Below are positions 4,207 to 18,924 of a stretch of DNA of 44,982 nt, piece after piece. The notes beneath the pieces were generated by a model. It was not told the origin of the DNA. It did not search any database and saw only the letters and a list, made by a program, of their open reading frames with translations. A program made the position numbers and the translations under genes. This DNA is from an uncultured Gammaproteobacteria bacterium (GTDB lineage Bacteria; Patescibacteriota; Patescibacteriia; Magasanikbacterales; GWA2-37-8), in assembly GCA_964355175.1 (NCBI GenBank), contig CAYHBZ010000001.1, positions 505,400-550,381 of the forward strand, in the 5' to 3' direction. Position 1 is the stretch's first letter; each line of letters opens with the position of its first letter.

Positions 4207-4318
4207 TGTCCTGGCGACGGCCTACTTTTGCCTTGCGGCTATCATCGGCGCAGATGAGCTTAACTGCTGTGTTCGGGATGGGAACAGGTGTGACCTCATC
4301 GCTTGTGTCACCAAGACA
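4207..4318 (-). rRNA. rrf: 5S ribosomal RNA
   Basis: The reverse complement reads GTCTTGGTGAC...CCTGTTCCCATCCCGAACACAGCAGTTAAGC...GTCGCCAGGAC. This gives the conserved loop sequence and a closing helix I. Ends are good to about 3 nt. Confidence 0.9.
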
Positions 4319-4424
4319 CTGACTCTTTAATTGTTCAAACTTGAACTTAATAGGTAAACCATGCGCGTTATATTGAGAGTATATTGATATCTTTGCATTC
4401 GTTTAAGCACAACTCAGTGCTTCC

Positions 4425-7632
<3,208 letters not shown>

Positions 7633-8782: not shown

Positions 8783-9427
8783 TTATTTCTTCAATTTTGC
8801 CCAATCATCCAAAAAGGTTTTAATACCAATATCGGTCAGAGGATGTTTAAACAATTGCTGTAAAACTTTAAAAGGAATAGTAGCCACCTGCGCGCCAGCC
8901 ACAGCCGCCTTTTGTACAGTGAGCGGACTACGGATAGAAGCTACCAAAATCTGCGAAGCAAAATTATAATTTTTAATTATAGCTACCGAGTCGGCAATCA
9001 TTTGCATTCCATCATCACCAATATCATCGAGGCGGCCAACAAACGGACTAATATAAGTAGCCCCTGCCTTGGCCGCTAGCAACACCTGATTGGCGGAAAA
9101 TACCAAAGTAACATTGGTTTTTATACCCAATTTTTTCACTTCTTTTACGGCTCTTAGGCCATCTGGAGTACAAGGAATTTTCACCACCACATTTTTGTGC
9201 CAAGTAGCCAATTCCTTGGCTTCTTCAATCATTTTATCGGCCTCGAGCGATATTACTTCAGCACTTACCGGACCATCTACAATATCGCAAATCTCCAGAA
9301 CTACCTGTTTGAAATCACGACCTTCTTTGGAAACAAGACTAGGATTGGTAGTCACACCATCCACCAAGCCCCAAGCGTGGGCGGTCTTAATTTCTTCAAT
9401 ATTGGCGGTATCGATAAAAAATTTCAT
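8783..9427 (-). CDS. Transaldolase / fructose-6-phosphate aldolase family (short TalC/Fsa type)
   Basis: [33 protein letters not shown] and [10 protein letters not shown]. The start is taken at MKFF (9427). Confidence 0.9.
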
Positions 9428-9454
9428 GTTATTGGTAATTATTTTAATATACAA

Positions 9455-9483
9455 ATAATAGCTGATTATAAAAATATTGGCAA
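9455..9483 (-). promoter_or_regulatory. Candidate promoter for the transaldolase gene (TTGCCA-17-TATTAT)
   Basis: Hexamers read on the minus strand at 9483-9478 and 9460-9455, with a 17-nt spacer. Confidence 0.4.
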
Positions 9484-9494
9484 GAAAAGAATTA

Positions 9495-9530
9495 AAAACA
9501 TCCCGACTTTAATCGGGATGTTTTATATTT
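9495..9530. terminator. Bidirectional intrinsic terminator (aaaacatcccga...tcgggatgtttt)
   Basis: 12-bp stem flanked by an A-run and a T-run. Confidence 0.65.
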
Positions 9531-9531
9531 T

Positions 9532-9560
9532 TTGGATCGCTCGCATCTTATAAATACAAT
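9532..9560 (+). promoter_or_regulatory. Candidate promoter TTGGAT-17-TACAAT pointing into the GC-rich island
   Basis: Hexamers at 9532-9537 and 9555-9560. The ORF-track start at 9532 is a TTG that coincides with the -35 box. Confidence 0.35.
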
Positions 9561-9978
9561 TTTTATATCTACAAGACGAGAGCGAGGATCCAAAGATACT
9601 GCACCGTCTGCCGAGTTACCCCAGCATACCTTTTTCAAGGCGGATCACGAATACGCACGCGGACCTCCTTTATTCCTCACCAACGAAAGCGAGAAACTGA
9701 TAGAACAACTCGATGTGGAGAGGGCGGCCCAGCGAAGGAGCGCCGAACGTGAAGATGTCGAGCAGATGCATGGCGTCGAACCTTCCGTCCGTCGCACGCC
9801 CCTTGGCTTCAGCGGCGATTTGCCGCCTGAGATCTTCAGAAACATTCCCGAAAGACTCATGATCGAGGAGGTGATCGAGAGCCGCGAGGAAATCTTCGAG
9901 AATTCGCACAAAATAGAAATTCAAGGCATGCCTTCTTGCCGTTGGGCGGTTGGTTGTCTGTGCGTACATATACACTAA
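9532..9978 (+). CDS. Candidate ORF in the GC-rich island (hypothetical, E/R-rich)
   Basis: Open frame, but with a TTG start and no in-frame ATG before 9768, and no Shine-Dalgarno. A plus-strand promoter and a weak downstream hairpin support this orientation. Confidence 0.25.
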   Translation: MDRSHLINTIFISTRRERGSKDTAPSAELPQHTFFKADHEYARGPPLFLTNESEKLIEQLDVERAAQRRSAEREDVEQMHGVEPSVRRTPLGFSGDLPPEIFRNIPERLMIEEVIESREEIFENSHKIEIQGMPSCRWAVGCLCVHIH

Positions 9979-9985
9979 AAAAACG
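9560..9985. other. Compositionally anomalous GC-rich island; coding strand unresolved
   Basis: There is an abrupt rise in G+C. My hand count over about 112 codons gives roughly 60% at codon position 3 and 63% at position 1 of the plus-strand frame. Both flanks are AT-rich. Terminator hairpins lie on both sides (9495-9530 and 9981-10001). Confidence 0.7.
9670..9969 (-). CDS. Candidate ORF in the GC-rich island (hypothetical, 99 aa, helical-looking)
   Basis: This is the codon-for-codon antisense of the plus ORF (MYAQTTNRPTARRHALNFYFVRILEDFLAALDHLL...). The longer track ORF to 10053 runs through tRNA-Leu, so I trimmed it. There is no SD and no room for a promoter after the tRNA terminator. Confidence 0.25.
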   Translation of the reverse strand: MYAQTTNRPTARRHALNFYFVRILEDFLAALDHLLDHESFGNVSEDLRRQIAAEAKGRATDGRFDAMHLLDIFTFGAPSLGRPLHIELFYQFLAFVGEE

Positions 9986-10026
9986 ATCTTGTCAATCGTT
10001 TTCGTGGTTTTTGTTAAATTAAATTG

Positions 10027-10107
10027 TGCCTGGGAGAGGACTTGAACCTCCACGCCTTACGGCACGGGCTTCTAAGACCCGCGTGTATACCATTTCACCA
10101 CCCAGGC
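10027..10107 (-). tRNA. tRNA-Leu (anticodon UAG), class II with long variable arm; CCA not encoded
   Basis: Cloverleaf folded by hand. Acceptor GCCTGGG/CCCAGGC, anticodon loop CTTAGAA, 13-nt variable arm, T-loop TTCAAGT. Confidence 0.9.
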
Positions 10108-10196
10108 TAATATGGCCATATTTAACCATATTCTTTTTAAAAAAACAAGACTAAACAAAAAAACCCGATTAAATCAGGATTTTCTGTCCAACCAAC

Positions 10197-11417
10197 TTAT
10201 AGTTTATTTACAAAATCTTTATAACCAAAAGTTTTTACCACTTTATATTTTCCTTTTTTATCCAGAATACCGATATTTGGCAACGGGATACCATTGAAAG
10301 TGGTATTTTTTACAAAGGTATAGAGAGCCATGTCGGTAAATAAAAGCTTTTGTCCCGGCTGGATAGGAGCATCAAAAGAATAATCTCCAAAAGTATCACC
10401 GGCCAAACAAGACGGACCACCGATACGATAAAGATTTTTCTTTACCGGGCCCTTGGCAGCATCGATGATGCAAGGCTGATAAGGCATACCAAGCACATCC
10501 GGAGTATGAGTTTCAGCCGAAGCGTCCACGATAGCCACATGGCCTTTATTTTCAATAATATCCAGGACAGTGGTAGCAAAATAACCAGCATTGAGTACTA
10601 CACCTTCGCCCGGTTCCATATAAACCTGAATTTTATATTTTGATTTTAAATTTTTAATCAAACGAATAAGCAAGTCAAGTTTATAATCTTTCCTAGTCAC
10701 ATGATGGCCGCCACCAATATTGACCCATTTTAATTTTGGTAAATATTTACCAAAATCAGCTTCAAATTTTTTCAAAACTTCTTCCAGAGAATCAGCGTCT
10801 TGTTCGCACAGAGCATGAAAATGAAAACCATCAATAAGAGAAAGATCTTCACCTTTAAATTGTTCAGCAATCACACCCAAACGAGATTTAGCCACACATG
10901 GACTATATAAAAGCTTTGGGGATTTAGACAACATTGGATTAATGCGCAAACCCACTTGCTTGCCGGCTTTCTTTACCATCGCCGCGTATTTACGAACTTG
11001 GTTAAAAGAATTAAAGATAACAGTGTCAGAATATTTTATGACATCTTTAATATCTTTGTCGGTAAAAGCTGGCGAAAAGGTATGAACTTCTTTTTTGAAA
11101 TCTTCGCGACCCAGTCGAGCTTCGTAGATTCCGCTGGCACAGGCACCATCTAAATATTTGCCAATTAGAGGAAAAGTAGCCCGCAAAGAAAATGCCTTTA
11201 GGGCAATTAAGATTTTACAGCCGGTTTCATTTTTTACTTTTTTCAAAATCTTTAAATTCTCTTCGAGCACTGCTTCGTCGATAATATAAGCCGGTGTTTG
11301 AATATTTGCGGTTTGTTTTACAACATCACGCAAATGATTCAAAGTAACATGCGAAGGAAAAGTAAAATAAGAATCTGGAAATTTGTATTCATTTTTCATA
11401 AAATATTTTATTCCCAT
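10197..11417 (-). CDS. nspC: Carboxynorspermidine/carboxyspermidine decarboxylase
   Basis: PLP-dependent fold-III decarboxylase. Contains TPAYIIDEAVLEENLKIL, LKAFS, NIGGGHH and GPSCLAGD, and sits next to CANSDH. An alternative start is MKNEYKF at 11399. Confidence 0.85.
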   Translation of the reverse strand: MGIKYFMKNEYKFPDSYFTFPSHVTLNHLRDVVKQTANIQTPAYIIDEAVLEENLKILKKVKNETGCKILIALKAFSLRATFPLIGKYLDGACASGIYEARLGREDFKKEVHTFSPAFTDKDIKDVIKYSDTVIFNSFNQVRKYAAMVKKAGKQVGLRINPMLSKSPKLLYSPCVAKSRLGVIAEQFKGEDLSLIDGFHFHALCEQDADSLEEVLKKFEADFGKYLPKLKWVNIGGGHHVTRKDYKLDLLIRLIKNLKSKYKIQVYMEPGEGVVLNAGYFATTVLDIIENKGHVAIVDASAETHTPDVLGMPYQPCIIDAAKGPVKKNLYRIGGPSCLAGDTFGDYSFDAPIQPGQKLLFTDMALYTFVKNTTFNGIPLPNIGILDKKGKYKVVKTFGYKDFVNKL

Positions 11418-12655
11418 TTAACTTCTGGCACATCAGCGCCAAATACTTCCACCCAAGGTAGACCGTCAGTCATGAGGGCTTGCATAAATGGCTCTGGATT
11501 CATTTGCTCTACATTGAATACACCTGTTCCCTGCCATTCTCCTTTGAGAATCATCTTGGCCCCAATCATTGGCGGCACACCGGCAGTATAGGAAATACCC
11601 TGAGATTCAGTTTCGCGATAACACTCGGCGTGATCGCAGATATTATAGATATAATAAGATTTTGGTTGATTATTTTTATCCAAACCTTTGATAATACAAC
11701 CAATATTTGTCTTACCAGTATAATTCTTGGCAAGTGAGGCTGGGTCTGGTAATAATTTTTCTAACAATTTAATCGGCACAATTTTTGTACCATTATAATC
11801 CACTTCATCAATACGAGTCATGCCGACATTTTGCAATACGCGCAAATGAGCTAGATATTGTTCGCCAAAAGTCATACCAAAAGTAGCTACTTTCAAAGTT
11901 GGAAAATTTTTGACCAAAGACTGCAATTCCTCATGATAGAGAAGATAAGTTTCTTTTGGTCCGATCTCTGGATAGTTGAAAGCAAAATGATAATCAGGAC
12001 GAGAAGCTAATGGACTAATAATCGGACCCACATCCACCCACTGACCATCTTTCCAAAACTTAGCCGAAGAACCAACTTCGCGTATATTTATTTCCGGACT
12101 AAAATTAGTGGCAAAAACATGACCATGATCACCGGCATTACAATCCATGATATGCAATTCGTGAATTTCATTGAAATATTTTTTGGCGCCGTAAGCGGTC
12201 ATAGCCTGGGTCACGCCCGGATCAAAGCCGCAGCCAAGCACCGCTATCAAGCCGGCTTCTTTAAATTTATCACTCATCGCCCATTGCTCATCATAGCGCA
12301 TACGAGCTTCTTCGATTGGCTCGTAGTTCGCGGTATCGACATAATTCACTTTAGCTTCCAAACAAGCTTCCATCACAATCAGATCAAAATATGGATCAAC
12401 CAAATTGATAAGAATATTTGGACGAAGCTCCTGGAGCAAACGCACCAAATCGGTTTTGTCTGTCATGGTCACTGTCACGGCCGCGGTCTTAATAGTCGTG
12501 CCAGTTAATCTTTTAGCGGCCTCAGCAATACGATCGCATTTTGCCAGCGTACGACTAGCCACAATAATTTCATTAAAAACTTCCGGCTGTTGAGCACACT
12601 TAATGGCAGTAACTTTGGCTACACCACCGGCACCCAAAATGAGAACCTTGTTCAT
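11408..12655 (-). CDS. Carboxynorspermidine synthase/dehydrogenase (saccharopine dehydrogenase family)
   Basis: Rossmann N-terminus MNKVLILGAGGVA. Length and context are typical of CANSDH. The start is taken at 12655, not the 18-codon upstream extension. Confidence 0.85.
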   Translation of the reverse strand: MNKVLILGAGGVAKVTAIKCAQQPEVFNEIIVASRTLAKCDRIAEAAKRLTGTTIKTAAVTVTMTDKTDLVRLLQELRPNILINLVDPYFDLIVMEACLEAKVNYVDTANYEPIEEARMRYDEQWAMSDKFKEAGLIAVLGCGFDPGVTQAMTAYGAKKYFNEIHELHIMDCNAGDHGHVFATNFSPEINIREVGSSAKFWKDGQWVDVGPIISPLASRPDYHFAFNYPEIGPKETYLLYHEELQSLVKNFPTLKVATFGMTFGEQYLAHLRVLQNVGMTRIDEVDYNGTKIVPIKLLEKLLPDPASLAKNYTGKTNIGCIIKGLDKNNQPKSYYIYNICDHAECYRETESQGISYTAGVPPMIGAKMILKGEWQGTGVFNVEQMNPEPFMQALMTDGLPWVEVFGADVPEVKWE

Positions 12656-12725
12656 AGATAATTTAATTAAAATGATTGCTAAATTTAAATAAATTTTACA
12701 CACTAACAATCATAGTGTCAATATA

Positions 12726-12754
12726 TTGACAATTTGGCTTTTCTATGTTAGGAT
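12726..12754 (+). promoter_or_regulatory. Promoter TTGACA-17-TAGGAT with extended -10 TG
   Basis: Hexamers at 12726-12731 and 12749-12754, with TG at 12746-12747. A second perfect TATAAT lies at 12796-12801. Confidence 0.55.
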
Positions 12755-12800
12755 GGCCAATCGTTCTTTTTAAATTTAGTCAAAAAACCAGAGGCTATAA

Positions 12801-12863
12801 TCTCGATTTGAGAAGATTTTTTATATTATTTTTGTAGTCTAAAAATTCTTCTCAAATCCGAGA
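12801..12863 (+). promoter_or_regulatory. Long 5'-leader hairpin (stem of about 20 bp)
   Basis: tctcgatttgagaagatttt (12801-12820) pairs with aaaaattcttctcaaatccgaga (12841-12863) with two bulges. No U-tract follows on the plus strand. A small cccct/agggg hairpin follows at 12875-12889. Confidence 0.6.
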
Positions 12864-12921
12864 GTTTCCCTCAACCCCTGGGCTAGGGGCAGAAGACACC
12901 AAGATTGAAAAAAGAGGATCC

Positions 12922-13704
12922 ATGAACACGCACTTCCATATCAACGATCAAGGCTTCTTCGTCCCGACGGCCGAAATCAAGGGAGAAACGCTACCTGGCA
13001 ACGAGGACATCGACATCACCCAGGCTGGCGGTATCCAGGCGACTCTCCACCCCATCTTCCACCGTATCAAGGAGTCGTTTCCGCACTCGATGAACTTCGG
13101 CACGTTGGCAGAGTTCGAAGAACGTACCCGTTGGCTCAAGCGGCGACTGGGCGAGGAAGACGAGTACCGCAAACTCGCCAACGGTGTCTGCCTGCCGCTC
13201 GTACTGGGTCAGTACACGTCGACCAATCTAGGCTCCAACCTGGAGAAAACGTTCATCGCGTCTGCGGCACGATCGTACTGTCTGGATTTTCCGGGCCGCG
13301 AACTCGTGAACTACCGCAAGGGCAAGCTGGCCGACATGGTGGAGATCGTCGAAGGCACTCGTCACGATCGCGTGATCGCGAAGATGGCCGAAAGTCCGGT
13401 CTACGCGTTGTACTTCCCGTACGCGCTGTTGGGCTGGTCCATCCCGGCCGATCGCGAACTGATCGCCATGTTGCCCGAAAACTTCGCGCTGACGGGTGGC
13501 ATCGACACCGCCACGGCTTTGGCTGGCTACAGCTACCTGTTGGCCAGCAACTACCGCAAGCCCACCTTGGACTGCGCGGCAATCTGCTGGGACAACCCCA
13601 ACCGGTCGCTGTTCTTTCGTCCCGACGACGACGAACTCGTCTTCGACCGTGGTCGGCTCAGTGCCGACGAGAACTACGCGGGCGGTCTCCTGTACCTCGG
13701 GTAG
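12922..13704 (+). CDS. Orphan hypothetical protein (260 aa) with foreign high-GC codon usage
   Basis: ATG is preceded by AAGAGGA 4 nt upstream. GC3 is about 75% by hand count over the first 72 codons. No motif I recognise. The overlapping ORFs in other frames are typical high-GC shadows. Confidence 0.8.
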   Translation: MNTHFHINDQGFFVPTAEIKGETLPGNEDIDITQAGGIQATLHPIFHRIKESFPHSMNFGTLAEFEERTRWLKRRLGEEDEYRKLANGVCLPLVLGQYTSTNLGSNLEKTFIASAARSYCLDFPGRELVNYRKGKLADMVEIVEGTRHDRVIAKMAESPVYALYFPYALLGWSIPADRELIAMLPENFALTGGIDTATALAGYSYLLASNYRKPTLDCAAICWDNPNRSLFFRPDDDELVFDRGRLSADENYAGGLLYLG

Positions 13705-13787
13705 CGTCGGCCAGTCGACGTAGTGGTTTTTTTGACAACTATGTTCAGCACTAAGTCGTTCGCGATTTGGTGTCAAACTCTTACCTC

Positions 13788-13825
13788 CACGACCGGGCCC
13801 AACAGCCCGGTCGTCGTGTTTTTAT
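13788..13825 (+). terminator. GC-rich intrinsic terminator (cgaccgggc...gcccggtcg + T-run)
   Basis: 9-bp GC stem followed by tcgtgttttt. A weaker hairpin plus T7 lies at 13706-13733. Confidence 0.75.
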
Positions 13826-13870
13826 TATTGTAATTGAATAAATTTTGTGATAGCATTATCGTATATAAAA

Positions 13871-15226
13871 ATGACTATGTCCAAAAAATATATCGTCAAT
13901 AAATGCGGCGGTGGCATCATGGTGCCGACTCTCTTGCCACTCGTAAAAAAAGAACTTCAAAAACAAATTAAGAGTGGTCATTATCCAATTGTTGTTGTTT
14001 CGGCCATCAAAGATGTCACCGACACCATTATTGAATTTTTGTCAGCCTTATCGAAAAATAAAAAATCTTCTCAGGACATTGAAAAATTCATCGCCCATTT
14101 GCGTGGTATGCATTTGAAACTATTTCAATCCATGGGCGTGACCCAAGAAATAGAAAATCGCATATATACCCACTTGGATAAACTATTTGTTTTATTATCC
14201 AGCGACCTACAAAATTATTTAAAAAACAACTCTCCTGAATTGGAAACCAAAATCACGGCTTATGGAGAAAAATTATCCGCCGTATGTGCGGCTGAATATT
14301 TTTCTGCCAATAATTTAACTGCCACCGCGGTCTTTGCCGAAAATATTCCGGTGATTACCGATGATGTAGTGAAAGATGCTAATATTTTATATCCAGAATC
14401 AGAAAAAAATTTACAACGCTATATTTCAACCATAAAATCCATACCAGTAATTGCTGGATTTACTGGAAAAACTTCTAATGGAATAACTACTCTTCTAGGA
14501 AGAGGCGGCACTGACACTACTGCTTGTTTTGTTGGAGCCGCATTACGCGCCCACAAAGTAGTATTATGGAAAGATGTCGGGGCAGTATATTCGGCCGACC
14601 CAAGATTGGTACCACAGGCCCGCACCATTCCATTTTTGAGCTACGATGAAATAGAAGAAGCCGGCAAAATTATTCAAGGAAAAGCCGTGCGTTATTTGCG
14701 CCAATACAAAATTTCAGCCGAAATTGCTTCTTTGATGAACGCAAAAGACAAAACTACTGTCCGCGATACCAAACAAACAAAACCAGGCGCCAAGATGGTA
14801 AGCTTCAAAAAAAATCTGACACTTTTTTCTCTTCACCAGGGAGACGCCAGAGGATATGAAACACTTTTTGAACTAAGCAATCTGTGTGCTCGCCATAAAG
14901 TAAATGTAGTACTGGTCTGGAACGACCCAGCCAATCTACATGTAGCCGTAGAAGATACCAGCGGCCTGTTGTCCGATCTAAAACAAGATGTAAAAAATAA
15001 ATTTCCTCAAATTATTATCGAGACAGTGCACATGATTACTATTGTTGGTAACTTTAGCTGGAAAGATGTAAATATTTTTAATAAAACTCTAAACACACTT
15101 GATAAAAACGCTTTGATGGGTGCGTACCCATATCCCCAATGCATGAGAATGGAAGGTATAGTAGTTGCCAAAAACGATCTACCATCCCTGTTGCGTTCTA
15201 TGCATAAAACTTTTATTCATAAATAA
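13871..15226 (+). CDS. Aspartate kinase
   Basis: Amino-acid kinase fold (KCGGG, VVVVSA, LGRGGTDTTA) with a C-terminal ACT-like region. I prefer the ATG at 13871 over the GTG at 13847. Confidence 0.8.
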   Translation: MTMSKKYIVNKCGGGIMVPTLLPLVKKELQKQIKSGHYPIVVVSAIKDVTDTIIEFLSALSKNKKSSQDIEKFIAHLRGMHLKLFQSMGVTQEIENRIYTHLDKLFVLLSSDLQNYLKNNSPELETKITAYGEKLSAVCAAEYFSANNLTATAVFAENIPVITDDVVKDANILYPESEKNLQRYISTIKSIPVIAGFTGKTSNGITTLLGRGGTDTTACFVGAALRAHKVVLWKDVGAVYSADPRLVPQARTIPFLSYDEIEEAGKIIQGKAVRYLRQYKISAEIASLMNAKDKTTVRDTKQTKPGAKMVSFKKNLTLFSLHQGDARGYETLFELSNLCARHKVNVVLVWNDPANLHVAVEDTSGLLSDLKQDVKNKFPQIIIETVHMITIVGNFSWKDVNIFNKTLNTLDKNALMGAYPYPQCMRMEGIVVAKNDLPSLLRSMHKTFIHK

Positions 15227-15233
15227 TTAATTT

Positions 15234-16319
15234 ATGTTTCGTGTTGGAATTATCGGCGCTACCGGTATGGTGGGACAAAGATATATTACCTTACTGGTAG
15301 GACATCCATGGTTCAAAGTGACCTGTGTAGCGGCTTCAGCCAACTCCGCTGGAGTGACCTACGCCGAATCGGTAAAGGGACGCTGGCAAATGAGCGAATC
15401 AATCCCCACAGAAGTTGGCAAACTCACGGTAATGGATGCGGTCAATATTGAAGACATTGCTCGTGCTTGTGATTTTGTTTTTTCAGCCGTAGAAATGCCG
15501 GACAAAGAAAAAGTAAAACAATTGGAAGAAGATTTGGCTGGGGCAGGATTGCCAGTAATTTCCAACGCTTCCGCTCACCGCTGGACAGAGGATGTACCGA
15601 TGTTGCTTCCGGAAATAAATTCCGACCACACCAAAATGATTGACGCTCAAAGGAAAAATCGCGGTTGGTCCAAAGGCTTTATCGCAGTGAAACCAAACTG
15701 CAGTATCCAAAGTTTTTTAACACCGATACACGCTTTGCGCCAAGCCGGATATGAAATCGACCGCTTGTCGGTCGTGACCATGCAAGCAATTTCCGGCGCG
15801 GGCTATCCGGGCGTACCAAGTCTCGATATGGTAGATAATGTCGTGCCATACATTGGTGGCGAAGAAGAAAAAACCGAAAAAGAACCGCTCAAAATTTTGG
15901 GCGAAGTAAAAAAAGGAAAATTTGTTTTAGCTGATAATCTCACCATCACCGCCGCCTGCAATCGCGTACCGGTAAGCGACGGCCATACCGCTTGTGTGAG
16001 TATGTCATTTAAGAAAAAGAGACCAACCAAAGAAAAAATTATTTCTATCTGGAAATCTTTTTCCGCCGTACCGCAAAAATTAGATCTGCCAATGGCTCCA
16101 AAACAAGCCATCATATATCTAGACGAAGAGAATCGCCCTCAACCAAAAAAAGATCGCGACAGCGAAAAAGGAATGGCCGTCAGCATCGGTCGTCTGCGCG
16201 AATGTCCCTTGTTTGATTTTAAATTTGTCGCCCTAAGTCACAACACTATCCGCGGCGCCGCTGGTGGCGGAATTTTGAATGCCGAACTTTTGGTAGAACA
16301 AGGATACATCAAAAAATAG
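15234..16319 (+). CDS. asd: Aspartate-semialdehyde dehydrogenase
   Basis: IIGATGMVGQ NAD(P)-binding loop, active-site KPNCSIQ, and SHNTIRGAAGG. Confidence 0.9.
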   Translation: MFRVGIIGATGMVGQRYITLLVGHPWFKVTCVAASANSAGVTYAESVKGRWQMSESIPTEVGKLTVMDAVNIEDIARACDFVFSAVEMPDKEKVKQLEEDLAGAGLPVISNASAHRWTEDVPMLLPEINSDHTKMIDAQRKNRGWSKGFIAVKPNCSIQSFLTPIHALRQAGYEIDRLSVVTMQAISGAGYPGVPSLDMVDNVVPYIGGEEEKTEKEPLKILGEVKKGKFVLADNLTITAACNRVPVSDGHTACVSMSFKKKRPTKEKIISIWKSFSAVPQKLDLPMAPKQAIIYLDEENRPQPKKDRDSEKGMAVSIGRLRECPLFDFKFVALSHNTIRGAAGGGILNAELLVEQGYIKK

Positions 16320-16330
16320 ATGGTGGAATA

Positions 16331-16369
16331 AAAAAATAATACGGATAATTTATCCGTATTATTTTTTTA
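16331..16369. terminator. Bidirectional terminator between convergent asd and the agmatinase gene
   Basis: aataatacggata / tatccgtattatt stem flanked by an A-run and a T-run. Confidence 0.65.
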
Positions 16370-16375
16370 TGATAA

Positions 16376-17293
16376 TTACTTGCTCTTAAGCAAAAACTTG
16401 TAATTAAACAATTTATAAACAAGTAGCGCCGCCATAAATTCCGAAGCCGGCAAACCTTTTATCGGTGCCAACTCATTCACATCAAACCCAACTACATTTT
16501 TATTTTTAAATACAGATCTCATTAAATCCAGACAATCATACCAATTCAGACCACCCGGCTCCGGTGTACCCGTAGCTGGCAAAAAACTAGGATCAAAACC
16601 ATCCAGATCAATACTGATATAAACATCCTTTTTTAATTGACAAACAATTTTGGCAATAGATTTAGCTTTCGTAGCCGCGTCAAAACCAAAACGGCTTGGA
16701 CTATAAATTCTATCCATGTATTTATTCTTTTTCACCCAATCAATTTCTCCTTGTGAAATACTGCGAATACCTACTTGAATTACAGTGTCGACATAATCAT
16801 AACTGCGTTTCATGGAGCAAGCATGACTATATTTTGTTCCTTCATAACTATCACGCAAATCACCGTGCGCGTCCCAATGTAAGACCGATAAATTTTTATA
16901 TTTTTGCGACAATGCTTTCACTGCGCCTGGCGTGATCGAGTGTTCACCACCAATCATACCCACAAATTTTCCATCTTTGATAAGTTCCGCGTATTTTTTG
17001 AAAACCGTATTAAACATTTTTTCCGGTGGCATTTCTTTTACTTTCATAAACGGCAAAGTATGTAGACCATACTTGGCATAGGCCTCCACATCAAATTCAC
17101 GATCATAATATTCCATCTGCGGCGAAGCAGCAATCAAAGCGGCCGGACCTTTGTCCGCGCCTTTGCCGTAAGAAGAAGTCTTGTCGTATGGTACTGGCAA
17201 AAGCACCGCTTTGGAATTTTTATAAGTTTGACCTTCAAAACCACCAAATGTTGGAGCGTATTTTATTCTTTTGTGCATAAAAAATTTTACCAA
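16376..17293 (-). CDS. speB: Agmatinase (ureohydrolase/arginase family)
   Basis: Mn-ligand motifs GGEHSIT, HWDAHGDLRD and SIDLDGFDPS. It overlaps the upstream decarboxylase gene by 7 nt. Confidence 0.85.
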   Translation of the reverse strand: MVKFFMHKRIKYAPTFGGFEGQTYKNSKAVLLPVPYDKTSSYGKGADKGPAALIAASPQMEYYDREFDVEAYAKYGLHTLPFMKVKEMPPEKMFNTVFKKYAELIKDGKFVGMIGGEHSITPGAVKALSQKYKNLSVLHWDAHGDLRDSYEGTKYSHACSMKRSYDYVDTVIQVGIRSISQGEIDWVKKNKYMDRIYSPSRFGFDAATKAKSIAKIVCQLKKDVYISIDLDGFDPSFLPATGTPEPGGLNWYDCLDLMRSVFKNKNVVGFDVNELAPIKGLPASEFMAALLVYKLFNYKFLLKSK

Positions 17294-18645
17294 CCAAACT
17301 TCTTCCCGATTTCTTCGGGAGTTTGATGCTCACGGGCGACATTGATATCACCATCTTGGCATACAATATTGGCTGGAGAAGATAATAAACAATGTTGAGA
17401 ACCTAGAGCGTCCTGATAAGCACCGGTATCAAAGAAAGCCACATACTGAGTTTCACCTTCTTCAATTTTTGGCAAACGCACATAACTACCGCCGGTATAT
17501 TTATCATCACTATCACAGCTACTACCACAGAGCCAAACTCTTTCTAATTTTTTGGAATTTAAATTATTGATTGGCACCACATGCCATTTTTGTTTAATAG
17601 ACCAGGTATCAATCAAATCATTCATAAAACTGCCGTCAATCACATACCACTTGCGAGCGGCCGCGCCTTTTTTAATATCTTTTTGACCGATAACTTTAAA
17701 AATTGTAATCTGTGACGGCGCCATAATATGACTACCCCATTCACAAATAATATGCGGCGGCTGAACACCATCACCGTTGCCGGTATGTTTGGCCAGATAA
17801 CTCACAATTCTCTGCACAATCCCTTGGACGGAATACATTTTTTTCTTATCGCGATTCACCGCAAAGCCACCACCAATATTGATAGTATCAAGTTGCGGAT
17901 TTACTTTTTTCAATTTTTTATAAATAGACAGGCCTTCTTTGAGAGCGGCCATAATATCATTGGCATGCGGAATCTGAGTACCAACATGATAATGTAAGAT
18001 TTTAAGATTACGCAATTTGCCTAAATCTAATAATTCTTCCGGTGTAAAACCAAAACGATCAATCGAATGATCCCAATGTGATTTGGTGCGCACAGAAAGA
18101 TCCACGCGAATACCAACTTCACCTTTATAGTTGCGTAAATAATTAAGTTCGTGCTGATTTTCAATAATTGGCACAATGTCGAGACCCTGCTCACGCAATT
18201 CTTTGATCAAAGCCAAATATTCATGGGTCTTTGGACCATTACAAATAACTTTGATACGAGAATTAAATTTATGCTGTTCCCACAAACGCTTCACAATCCA
18301 TAGCTCATTGGCGGAAGAAGTTTCAAGATTTGCACCCTCAGTAATAAGCGGCAAAATAAATTCACGGTTCTGATTTACTTTCATTGGGTAATGAAAGTAA
18401 AATTTACCCTTATACTTATACTTCTTAATATAAAAATCAAAAGTCTTAATCAAATTTTCAACACGATTTTCAATAATAAAAGGAAAGACCATCTCTAAAG
18501 AGGTTTCATATTTTTGAGTGAGTTCGTGAAGATTATACTGGTAGTTGCCTTCTTTTACCAAAAGTTCACCGTCCTTATTGATGTCGAAAAATTGTGTATC
18601 AAATTCCGGTTTACCAAGCTTCCAGAATTCCTTGAAGTTTTGCAT
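17287..18645 (-). CDS. PLP-dependent Orn/DAP/Arg decarboxylase family protein, probably a short arginine decarboxylase
   Basis: HYHVGTQI, INIGGGFAV, CGSSCDSDD and FFDTGAYQ. Its coupling to agmatinase argues for arginine as substrate; this is inference. Confidence 0.75.
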   Translation of the reverse strand: MQNFKEFWKLGKPEFDTQFFDINKDGELLVKEGNYQYNLHELTQKYETSLEMVFPFIIENRVENLIKTFDFYIKKYKYKGKFYFHYPMKVNQNREFILPLITEGANLETSSANELWIVKRLWEQHKFNSRIKVICNGPKTHEYLALIKELREQGLDIVPIIENQHELNYLRNYKGEVGIRVDLSVRTKSHWDHSIDRFGFTPEELLDLGKLRNLKILHYHVGTQIPHANDIMAALKEGLSIYKKLKKVNPQLDTINIGGGFAVNRDKKKMYSVQGIVQRIVSYLAKHTGNGDGVQPPHIICEWGSHIMAPSQITIFKVIGQKDIKKGAAARKWYVIDGSFMNDLIDTWSIKQKWHVVPINNLNSKKLERVWLCGSSCDSDDKYTGGSYVRLPKIEEGETQYVAFFDTGAYQDALGSQHCLLSSPANIVCQDGDINVAREHQTPEEIGKKFGW

Positions 18646-18695
18646 AAGCGCCTAAATGAGTACAAATTTAGTAAAAACCCATTAAATATGCATGT

Positions 18696-18724
18696 ATTAT
18701 AGCATAAAAAAGCAGTTTTGTCAA
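18696..18724 (-). promoter_or_regulatory. Perfect consensus promoter TTGACA-17-TATAAT for the decarboxylase-agmatinase operon
   Basis: The minus strand reads TTGACAaaactgcttttttatgcTATAAT, about 50 nt upstream of the ATG at 18645. Confidence 0.7.
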
Positions 18725-18752
18725 TGGGTTTTCGCCATTTTTTCCTCGCTGA

Positions 18753-18924
18753 AAAACTTTCTGGCTAGATTTTTTGCCATTGCGAAGCTCTTGGAAACAA
18801 ATTAATAAATTTTTTAGTAAAATGTCGCTGTTTGAGCGAAGCGAGTTGTGCATTTTACGTTAAGAAAAATTTGTTAATTTGTCCAAAGCGTAGCACAGGC
18901 AAAAAATCTAGCCAGAAAGTTTTG
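18753..18924. repeat. Imperfect palindrome of about 170 bp (element E2)
   Basis: Perfect 25-nt arms (18754-18778 versus 18898-18922) plus further partial arm pairing. The central core is gctgtttgagcgaagcgagtt (18827-18847), shared with E1. Confidence 0.8.

Follow-up and report, generated by a model that had tools for sequence, protein, structure and literature searches.

Why does a GC-rich block with a single gene stand in the middle of an AT-rich polyamine-biosynthesis cluster, and what does this gene encode? The question is raised by a stretch of 44,982 nt of a Patescibacteria genome (contig CAYHBZ010000001.1 of assembly GCA_964355175.1, positions 505,400 to 550,381; hereafter named the window), in which an open reading frame (ORF) for a 260-aa protein (12922-13704, plus strand) separates the genes CANSDH and CANSDC from those for aspartate kinase (AK) and asd. 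A first-pass annotation, made from the DNA letters alone, described an orphan gene cassette, either recently received from a high-GC donor or joined to the contig by an assembly error. Our analysis leads, with good confidence, to a different picture: an accessory insert of ∼1.03 kb in the AK leader of a Candidatus Magasanikbacteria genome (Patescibacteria, or candidate phyla radiation, CPR), the gene of which encodes a soluble 260-aa protein belonging to a large and very diverse family, frequent in CPR bacteria, of variable proteins of diversity-generating retroelements (DGRs).

The compositional contrast that first drew attention to the block is genuine. The window as a whole has a GC content of 40.7% and reaches its maximum of 56-63% in the 300-nt windows of 12901-13800, with an abrupt shift at both ends of the block. 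Across the three codon positions, the ORF shows GC1/GC2/GC3 values of 0.58/0.42/0.79; the initial value of about 75% GC3, taken from the first 72 codons, was thus a fair estimate, and this codon usage is unmatched by the other genes of the window (GC3 of 0.26-0.44, and 0.36 for the neighbors). The long out-of-frame and antisense ORFs said to shadow the gene were located at 13131-13754 (+), 13228-13776 (-) and 13253-13582 (-). The 260-aa gene is a real gene, since its codon-position GC pattern, its 417 homologous clusters, the retention of 38 of the 50 family columns conserved at ≥80% and a high-confidence AlphaFold model all point in the same direction.

The gene is not an orphan. A full HMMER scan over 1.84 billion cluster representatives recovered these 417 homologous clusters at E ≤ 1e-3, including 49 at E ≤ 1e-30; a word-indexed protein search returned the query itself as its sole match. 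The closest homologue, P0002, is 41% identical, and the ten clusters that were checked are all singletons at 90% identity whose source names read 'hypothetical protein' at best. In line with the initial failure to recognize any domain in the protein, no family-level match was found for any member in Pfam, NCBIfam, PHROGs, PADLOC or PDB sequences, and the Pfam comparison of 58 members revealed no FGE-sulfatase, DUF1566 or lectin match. Only stray matches of single members were obtained (a Tgt fragment fused to P0004, NIT, a photosystem subunit, LmuA and 6ewj). The window protein has neither a signal peptide nor a transmembrane (TM) segment, its maximal 19-residue hydropathy being 0.90. With a 58-sequence family alignment, AlphaFold2 predicts a regular alpha/beta domain with five terminal beta-strands (mean pLDDT of 95.5, pTM of 0.93); a single-sequence prediction reached a pLDDT of 31 only. 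A Foldseek comparison of this predicted structure, proposed earlier as a check, detected no relative in PDB and gave no match in BFVD either (best E = 0.7, TM < 0.3). As an observation on its own, the N-terminal 60 residues of the family member P0004 (261 aa) match tRNA-guanine transglycosylase (Tgt), which denotes either a gene fusion or a cassette inserted into tgt.

The nature of the family is indicated by the surroundings of some of its members. At locus L004, a 58-codon 'ORF' comes next after the family member P0021; behind it lie, in turn, a bAvd gene in the opposite orientation and a gene for an RVT_1 reverse transcriptase (RT). The 3' 117 nt of the P0021 gene recur 522 nt downstream with 85% identity, and 16 of the 17 mismatches fall at adenines of the downstream copy. 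Because of this adenine bias, the arrangement is the signature of a DGR, in which the target gene holds the variable region (VR) and a template repeat (TR) stands beside Avd and RT. When GTDB species genomes were scanned with a family peptide pattern derived from a 15-sequence sub-alignment, 17 loci were found in all, distributed over Falkowbacteria, Saccharibacteria, Doudnabacteria, Nealsonbacteria, Minisyncoccia, Parcubacteria and three non-CPR metagenome-assembled genomes (MAGs) attributed to Thermodesulfovibrionales, Gastranaerophilales and a gammaproteobacterium. In five of these loci (L016-L019 and L024), target, TR, Avd and RT are arranged as in L004, all within 2 kb. Over the six DGR systems, 91 of 100 VR/TR mismatches are located at TR adenines, and the VR of the linked members corresponds to the last ∼110-125 nt of the gene (∼36-40 codons). 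Their TRs encode runs such as SLNLNANDYKLNFDNRNLNANDNYAGG, in which asparagine codons (AAY) alternate with conserved hydrophobic residues. In the model, the AAY positions fall on the three C-terminal strands (residues 229-234, 238-244 and 252-258 of the window protein), and their alternation suggests a beta-sheet with the varied side chains on a single face, which may serve as a binding surface. As read from these sequence patterns, the family consists of variable (target) proteins of DGRs. CPR DGRs are known to form a separate clade, whose targets mostly lack a recognizable domain or membrane anchor and are in many cases placed in 'unknown VR' classes (PMC5758913, PMC8144416, PMC11661182).

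The DGR of L017, from a Saccharibacteria MAG, has a feature of its own. Its single TR matches two VR-like segments (L017:5470-5624 and L017:7266-7391), one in the analyzed family gene and the other ∼1.2 kb upstream, which suggests that two targets of the same family are served by one DGR.

How does the window copy relate to these systems? With the six DGR-linked targets, its protein shares 35-40% identity (E of 1e-41 to 1e-54), and its final 38 codons (13588-13701) can be aligned codon by codon, free of gaps, to the TR of L004. At the nine positions where this TR has AAY, the window gene carries TTC, CGT, GAC, GTC, CGT, CGG, AGT, GAC and AAC, i.e. NNY in eight of nine cases. The VR end is conserved and GC-rich (...NYAGGLLYLG*; AACTACGCGGGCGGTCTCCTGTACCTCGGGTAG in the window versus AACTACGCCGGCGGCGTTCTTCTCCTCGGG at the end of the L004 TR). 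Several observations weigh against the DGR reading of the window gene. No TR-like repeat of 12861-13830 was found anywhere in the 45-kb window, nor was an RT or Avd detected there (tblastn with the L004 RT and Avd at E ≤ 1; 19 window ORFs against Pfam). The protein is a short form, whereas the long forms linked to DGRs have an additional N-terminal domain of ∼50 aa, and an adjacent DGR (TR, Avd, RT) accompanies the family in 6 of 24 loci, a lower bound given that several contigs are short. Moreover, Foldseek, which can miss remote CLec variants, detected neither the C-type lectin fold typical of solved DGR variable proteins nor an Ig-like fold. Finally, the VRs are identical in two assemblies of the window genome, although these probably derive from the same reads and are little informative in this respect. 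Since TR, Avd and RT are all missing from the 45 kb, the window copy is either a stand-alone or a remote target. We consider it probable that it is a stand-alone, 'frozen' variable protein; that it is the remote target of a DGR located elsewhere in the ∼0.95-Mb genome is conceivable at a distinctly lower probability, as remote or multiple targets do occur, given the two VR copies for one TR in L017. The window copy might still be diversified at the present day.

The question of origin can be approached from related genomes, several of which have an intact CANSDH-AK region, as an earlier proposal to look for such genomes had envisaged. In L009, L010, ERZ1426823 and L033-L035 (AK 74-77% identical), the CANSDH-AK gap measures ∼125-130 bp without any cassette, and in L032 (GCA_026396535.1; AK 87% identical) the site holds 184 bp, likewise without cassette. 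AK homologues at this 87% level of identity are named Candidatus Magasanikbacteria. Relative to these empty sites, sequence alignment identifies the GC-rich block as an insertion into the AK leader, so the initial description of a separately terminated unit inside what would otherwise be the kinase leader was accurate. The relevant features are the following, the neighboring gene pairs named by the first-pass annotation being borne out by Pfam:

10197-11417, minus strand: carboxynorspermidine decarboxylase-like gene (CANSDC; Pfam).
11408-12655, minus strand: saccharopine-dehydrogenase-like gene CANSDH (Pfam).
12693-12721, minus strand: sigma-70-like CANSDH promoter, TTGACA-17-TAAAAT, with 11/12 matches; region kept in L008.
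12726-12754, plus strand: sigma-70-like promoter, TTGACA-17-TAGGAT, TG-extended; host DNA also found in the L032 empty site, now reading into the cassette.
12789-13820 (about ±10 nt), plus strand: inserted block of ∼1.03 kb, delimited by alignment to the empty sites of L009, L010, L032 and L033.
12801-12862, plus strand: long AT-rich hairpin with almost perfect pairing, at the insert's left end (z = -3.4).
12875-12889, plus strand: small GC leader hairpin, CCCCUG-GGC-UAGGGG; a similar hairpin occurs in the L011 leader.
12912-12918, plus strand: ribosome-binding site AAGAGGA, three nt ahead of the ATG.
12922-13704, plus strand: 260-aa gene, by homology a short-form member of the DGR variable (target) protein family.
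13588-13701, plus strand: segment homologous to the VR of DGR-linked members, encoding WDNPNRSLFFRPDDDELVFDRGRLSADENYAGGLLYLG, from the gapless 38-codon alignment to the L004 TR.
13704-13733, plus strand: first terminator-like hairpin (13704-13721) with T-run, beginning inside the stop codon; kept in L008.
13789-13824, plus strand: second terminator with a 10-bp GC stem, ACGACCGGGC/GCCCGGTCGT (hairpin 13789-13814), and T-run, at the insert's right end; common to L008 and the L011 cassette.
13828-13856, plus strand: putative proximal AK promoter, TTGTAA-17-TAGCAT, with TGTGA upstream, read from sequence; conserved in empty-site relatives.
13877-15226, plus strand: aspartate kinase (AK; Pfam), true start at 13877 (MSKKYIV...).
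15234-16319, plus strand: asd (Pfam).
Further on, minus strand: agmatinase and arginine decarboxylase (Pfam).

The insert is therefore made up, in this order, of an AT-rich hairpin, a GC-rich leader, a single ORF and two terminators; its own ribosome-binding site and both GC-rich terminators, noticed from the start, are present, the latter each as a hairpin followed by a T-run. The L032 empty site retains the promoter TTGACAAAATGG... together with ∼60 nt of the leader that precedes the cassette in the window. For this reason, the promoter at 12726-12754 is host DNA, and the earlier impression of a borrowed host promoter and leader was right. A promoter travelling with the cassette had been suggested by TATATTGACAA, which is common to L011; this option is ruled out by the same promoter and leader in the L032 empty site. 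The promoter stands back to back with that of CANSDH (12693-12721, minus strand). At this place, the -35 boxes of the two divergent promoters create a 16-bp perfect palindrome, TGTCAATATATTGACA (12711-12736), which is kept in L008 and nearly so in L032.

The insert contains no mobility gene (one ORF only), no flanking direct repeat above chance and no clear target-site duplication. Its DNA had no blastn match among phage records, and the 260-aa protein had no tblastn match among plasmids. Neither a confirmed family member nor the 3' terminator hairpin turned up in pattern-based scans of viral contigs; the scan of metagenome contigs for this hairpin gave three matches, all of them unrelated terminators of GC-rich genomes.

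From these elements, we propose the following scenario. An accessory insert (∼12789-13820) lies in the leader between the host promoter and the AK gene. In DGR-linked members of the family, copying of the TR puts random bases into the VR in place of TR adenines, which mostly belong to AAY codons; the window copy retains the VR scaffold and the conserved VR end. The 260-aa gene would be transcribed from the host promoter at 12726-12754 with an end at its own two terminators, and AK would keep its own proximal promoter, the element at 13828-13856 being host DNA that we tentatively assign to this role.

A refinement of this scenario comes from L008, a locus of another sequencing run (SRR22388113; AK protein 88% identical) whose insert occupies precisely this site and is likewise GC-rich (58-70% GC). 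About the same distance separates the window, L008 and L032 from one another, the flanking genes being 79-88% identical in all three pairs. The L008 gene (L008:2856-3632, plus strand) encodes a 258-aa protein; its similarity to the window protein is confined to the C-terminal 181 residues, with 32% identity. Between the window and L008, nucleotide identity amounts to 84% in the host promoter and leader, falls to 39-54% in the left hairpin, GC leader and coding sequence (CDS), and comes back to 82% in the 3' untranslated region (UTR) with both terminators; the flanking genes are 80-88% identical. In L008, a hairpin stands at the same place as 12801-12862 of the window, with another inner stem sequence (z = -4.4). 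Because the CDS is far more diverged than the adjoining non-coding DNA, a pattern hard to obtain by ordinary drift, a replacement of alleles by recombination is favored. In this refinement of the accessory-insert scenario, the two genes are anciently diverged interchangeable alleles, whose coding part was swapped with breakpoints near the left hairpin and near the stop codon. The gene trees of CANSDC, CANSDH and AK conflict on the closest pair among the window, L008 and L032, which suggests recombination, and the best match of each allele is P0002 rather than the other allele. Conversely, a fast-evolving protein next to a constrained 3' UTR could mimic the pattern, the L008 allele, with 30 of the 50 conserved family residues, may simply be decaying, and no donor allele was found. 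On balance, we give allele swapping an even chance.

In L008:2817-3680, the public gene calls consist of a pair of shadow ORFs on the antisense strand, 81 and 165 aa long, and miss the real plus-strand gene. These calls illustrate an annotation trap posed by GC-rich genes in AT-rich genomes.

Does the high GC content of the gene reveal its donor? The alternative of a recent transfer from a high-GC organism, with a gene not yet ameliorated to its host, accounts for the GC3 of 0.79 against 0.36 in the neighbors, for the absence of the gene at the same site in relatives and for a closest homologue of 41% identity only. However, not only does the gene have homologues, but its GC3 excess is a trait of the family: the family gene exceeds the mean GC3 of its neighbors in 19 of 23 loci (mean difference of +0.16, Wilcoxon p = 1.5e-4) and has the highest GC3 of the locus in 15 of 23. 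Within the six DGR cassettes, the targets have a GC content of 0.48-0.65 (about the same without the VR) versus 0.33-0.42 for their own Avd and RT genes, which means that they are 12-28 GC points richer than the genes they adjoin. P0002 too lies in a GC-rich island, next to rpiB in L011 (55% versus 38% GC), and its cassette closes with the same terminator hairpin as that of the window (CGACCGGG...CCCGGTCGTYGTGTTTTT). Among the loci found, no member resides in a host as GC-rich as itself and there is no donor-like native host. In addition, the L008 allele at the same site, 32% identical, is equally GC-rich; if both alleles go back to one shared ancestral insertion, their GC content has not decayed over a long divergence. 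Given the family-wide excess and the lack of a GC-rich native host, high GC does not identify a high-GC donor. The insertion part of the earlier proposal consequently stands, its high-GC donor is doubtful, and we regard a recent transfer of an orphan gene from such an organism as rather improbable.

An adenine-specific depletion was considered as the cause of the high GC content and discarded, since third positions are depleted of T as well as of A. A joint reading of fold and composition would be that the family represents a non-C-type-lectin DGR scaffold with variable residues alternating along three beta-strands of a fold that lacks a solved relative, and that its GC3 excess over its hosts and its own Avd and RT genes is the footprint of a locus-specific process and not of a foreign origin, e.g. 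GC-biased conversion tied to frequent recombination or retrohoming. We put this forward as a tentative idea that is more likely wrong than right. If true, a single-gene island of high GC in an AT-rich CPR genome would be the mark of a binding protein that is diversified or exchangeable, and stand-alone copies such as the window gene would be exchangeable alleles held at fixed loci.

Recruitment of the gene to the CANSDH/CANSDC-AK/asd cluster, where it would provide an enzyme or regulator accessory to the polyamine or aspartate pathway, is very unlikely. It would agree with the position of the gene inside the cluster, and conserved polar residues (NYR, SRH and RE motifs) could be catalytic. Against it, homologues never adjoin polyamine genes in the 23 other loci, where the surroundings are unrelated (GroEL, Mur ligase, rpiB, YceG, tRNA synthetases), most relatives with the same cluster are devoid of the gene, and two terminators stand between it and AK; the link to polyamines, entertained at first, is thus not upheld. 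As to an assembly chimera, in which a GC-rich fragment of another organism would have been joined into an AT-rich contig, the abrupt composition change at both ends is outweighed, at the level of assemblies, to the point of a negligible probability by the independent Logan contig ERR3856787_42905 (L001, 8762 bp; run ERR3856787), which is 100% identical to window positions 10036-18797 and crosses both junctions, by the homologous GC-rich gene with the same 3' UTR at the same site in the separate sample of L008, and by like islands in other genomes (L011 and L006).

Other features of the window deserve mention. A second GC-rich island (∼56% GC) lies at 9527-9968 on the minus strand, between a transaldolase-like gene and tRNA-Leu(tag). 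Its minus strand folds with a minimum free energy of -169.6 kcal/mol (z = -5.8 versus shuffled sequences; z = -1.3 for the plus strand), a promoter-like TTGACA..TATATG directly precedes the island (about 9990-9962), and positions 9500-9526 form a bidirectional terminator hairpin. For this island, Rfam gave nothing at E ≤ 1, and neither Pfam nor PHROG returned a significant match to its ORFs. On these sequence features, it is a candidate structured RNA of ∼440 nt. A scan of 9400-14000 against Rfam at E ≤ 1 produced chance-level miRNA/sRNA matches only, and for this reason the island of the 260-aa gene is not a known RNA. In L009, a large serine recombinase (L009:30-1625; Resolvase, Recombinase and Zn_ribbon_recom domains) is directly beside the CANSDC gene; with this recombinase in L009 versus tRNA-Leu and a GC-rich island in the window, the CANSDC-side flank of the cluster is also variable. 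Finally, the match of the 23S rRNA gene (4422-7626, minus strand) spans 3205 nt versus a 2925-nt model, i.e. ∼280 nt of insertion; the 5S gene (4209-4315) adjoins it, and no adjoining 16S gene was seen within the window.

These results have consequences beyond the locus. They call for caution with composition-based assignments, as what looked like a fresh transfer or a chimera belongs to a family that is GC-rich wherever found; composition alone would misassign its origin. They also offer a handle on an unnamed family of at least 417 clusters, a recurrent target of DGRs, which are unusually common in CPR bacteria and whose targets are almost all uncharacterized, and this family now has a high-confidence model without a solved relative. 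Besides, a locus that is empty, or holds allele A or allele B in sister genomes, provides a tractable case for studying how ultra-small genomes gain, swap and lose variable-protein genes.

How does the insert compare with known systems? Like small genomic islets (single genes of atypical composition at intergenic hot spots), it occupies one orthologous site in some close relatives and is missing from it in others, and has an atypical composition and terminators of its own. It differs from them by the lack of an integrase, a transposase, a clear target-site duplication or a tRNA at the site, and by an atypical composition that here tracks the gene family and not a donor.

With the C-type-lectin-fold variable proteins (Bordetella phage Mtd, Treponema TvpA, archaeal AvpA, Thermus TaqVP), the family shares variable residues concentrated in the last ∼40 positions, a conserved GC-rich VR 3' end abutting the stop codon and a presumed ligand-binding role. 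Unlike them, it has no profile match to any PDB chain and no Foldseek match, and its model is an alpha/beta fold with the VR on three consecutive beta-strands.

A third comparison is with the targets of CPR-clade DGRs, described as 'clade 2' by Roux et al. 2021 (PMC8144416) and as 'unknown VR' (UVR) or ungrouped by Wu et al. 2018 (PMC5758913). The window copy departs from these by the absence of TR, Avd and RT within 45 kb and by its short form. Nevertheless, family and CPR-clade targets have in common a C-terminal VR with an adenine-rich TR containing AAY codons, the order of target, TR, Avd (on the opposite strand) and RT in six family loci, the lack of recognizable domains, TM segments and signal peptide, and hosts that are mainly Patescibacteria.

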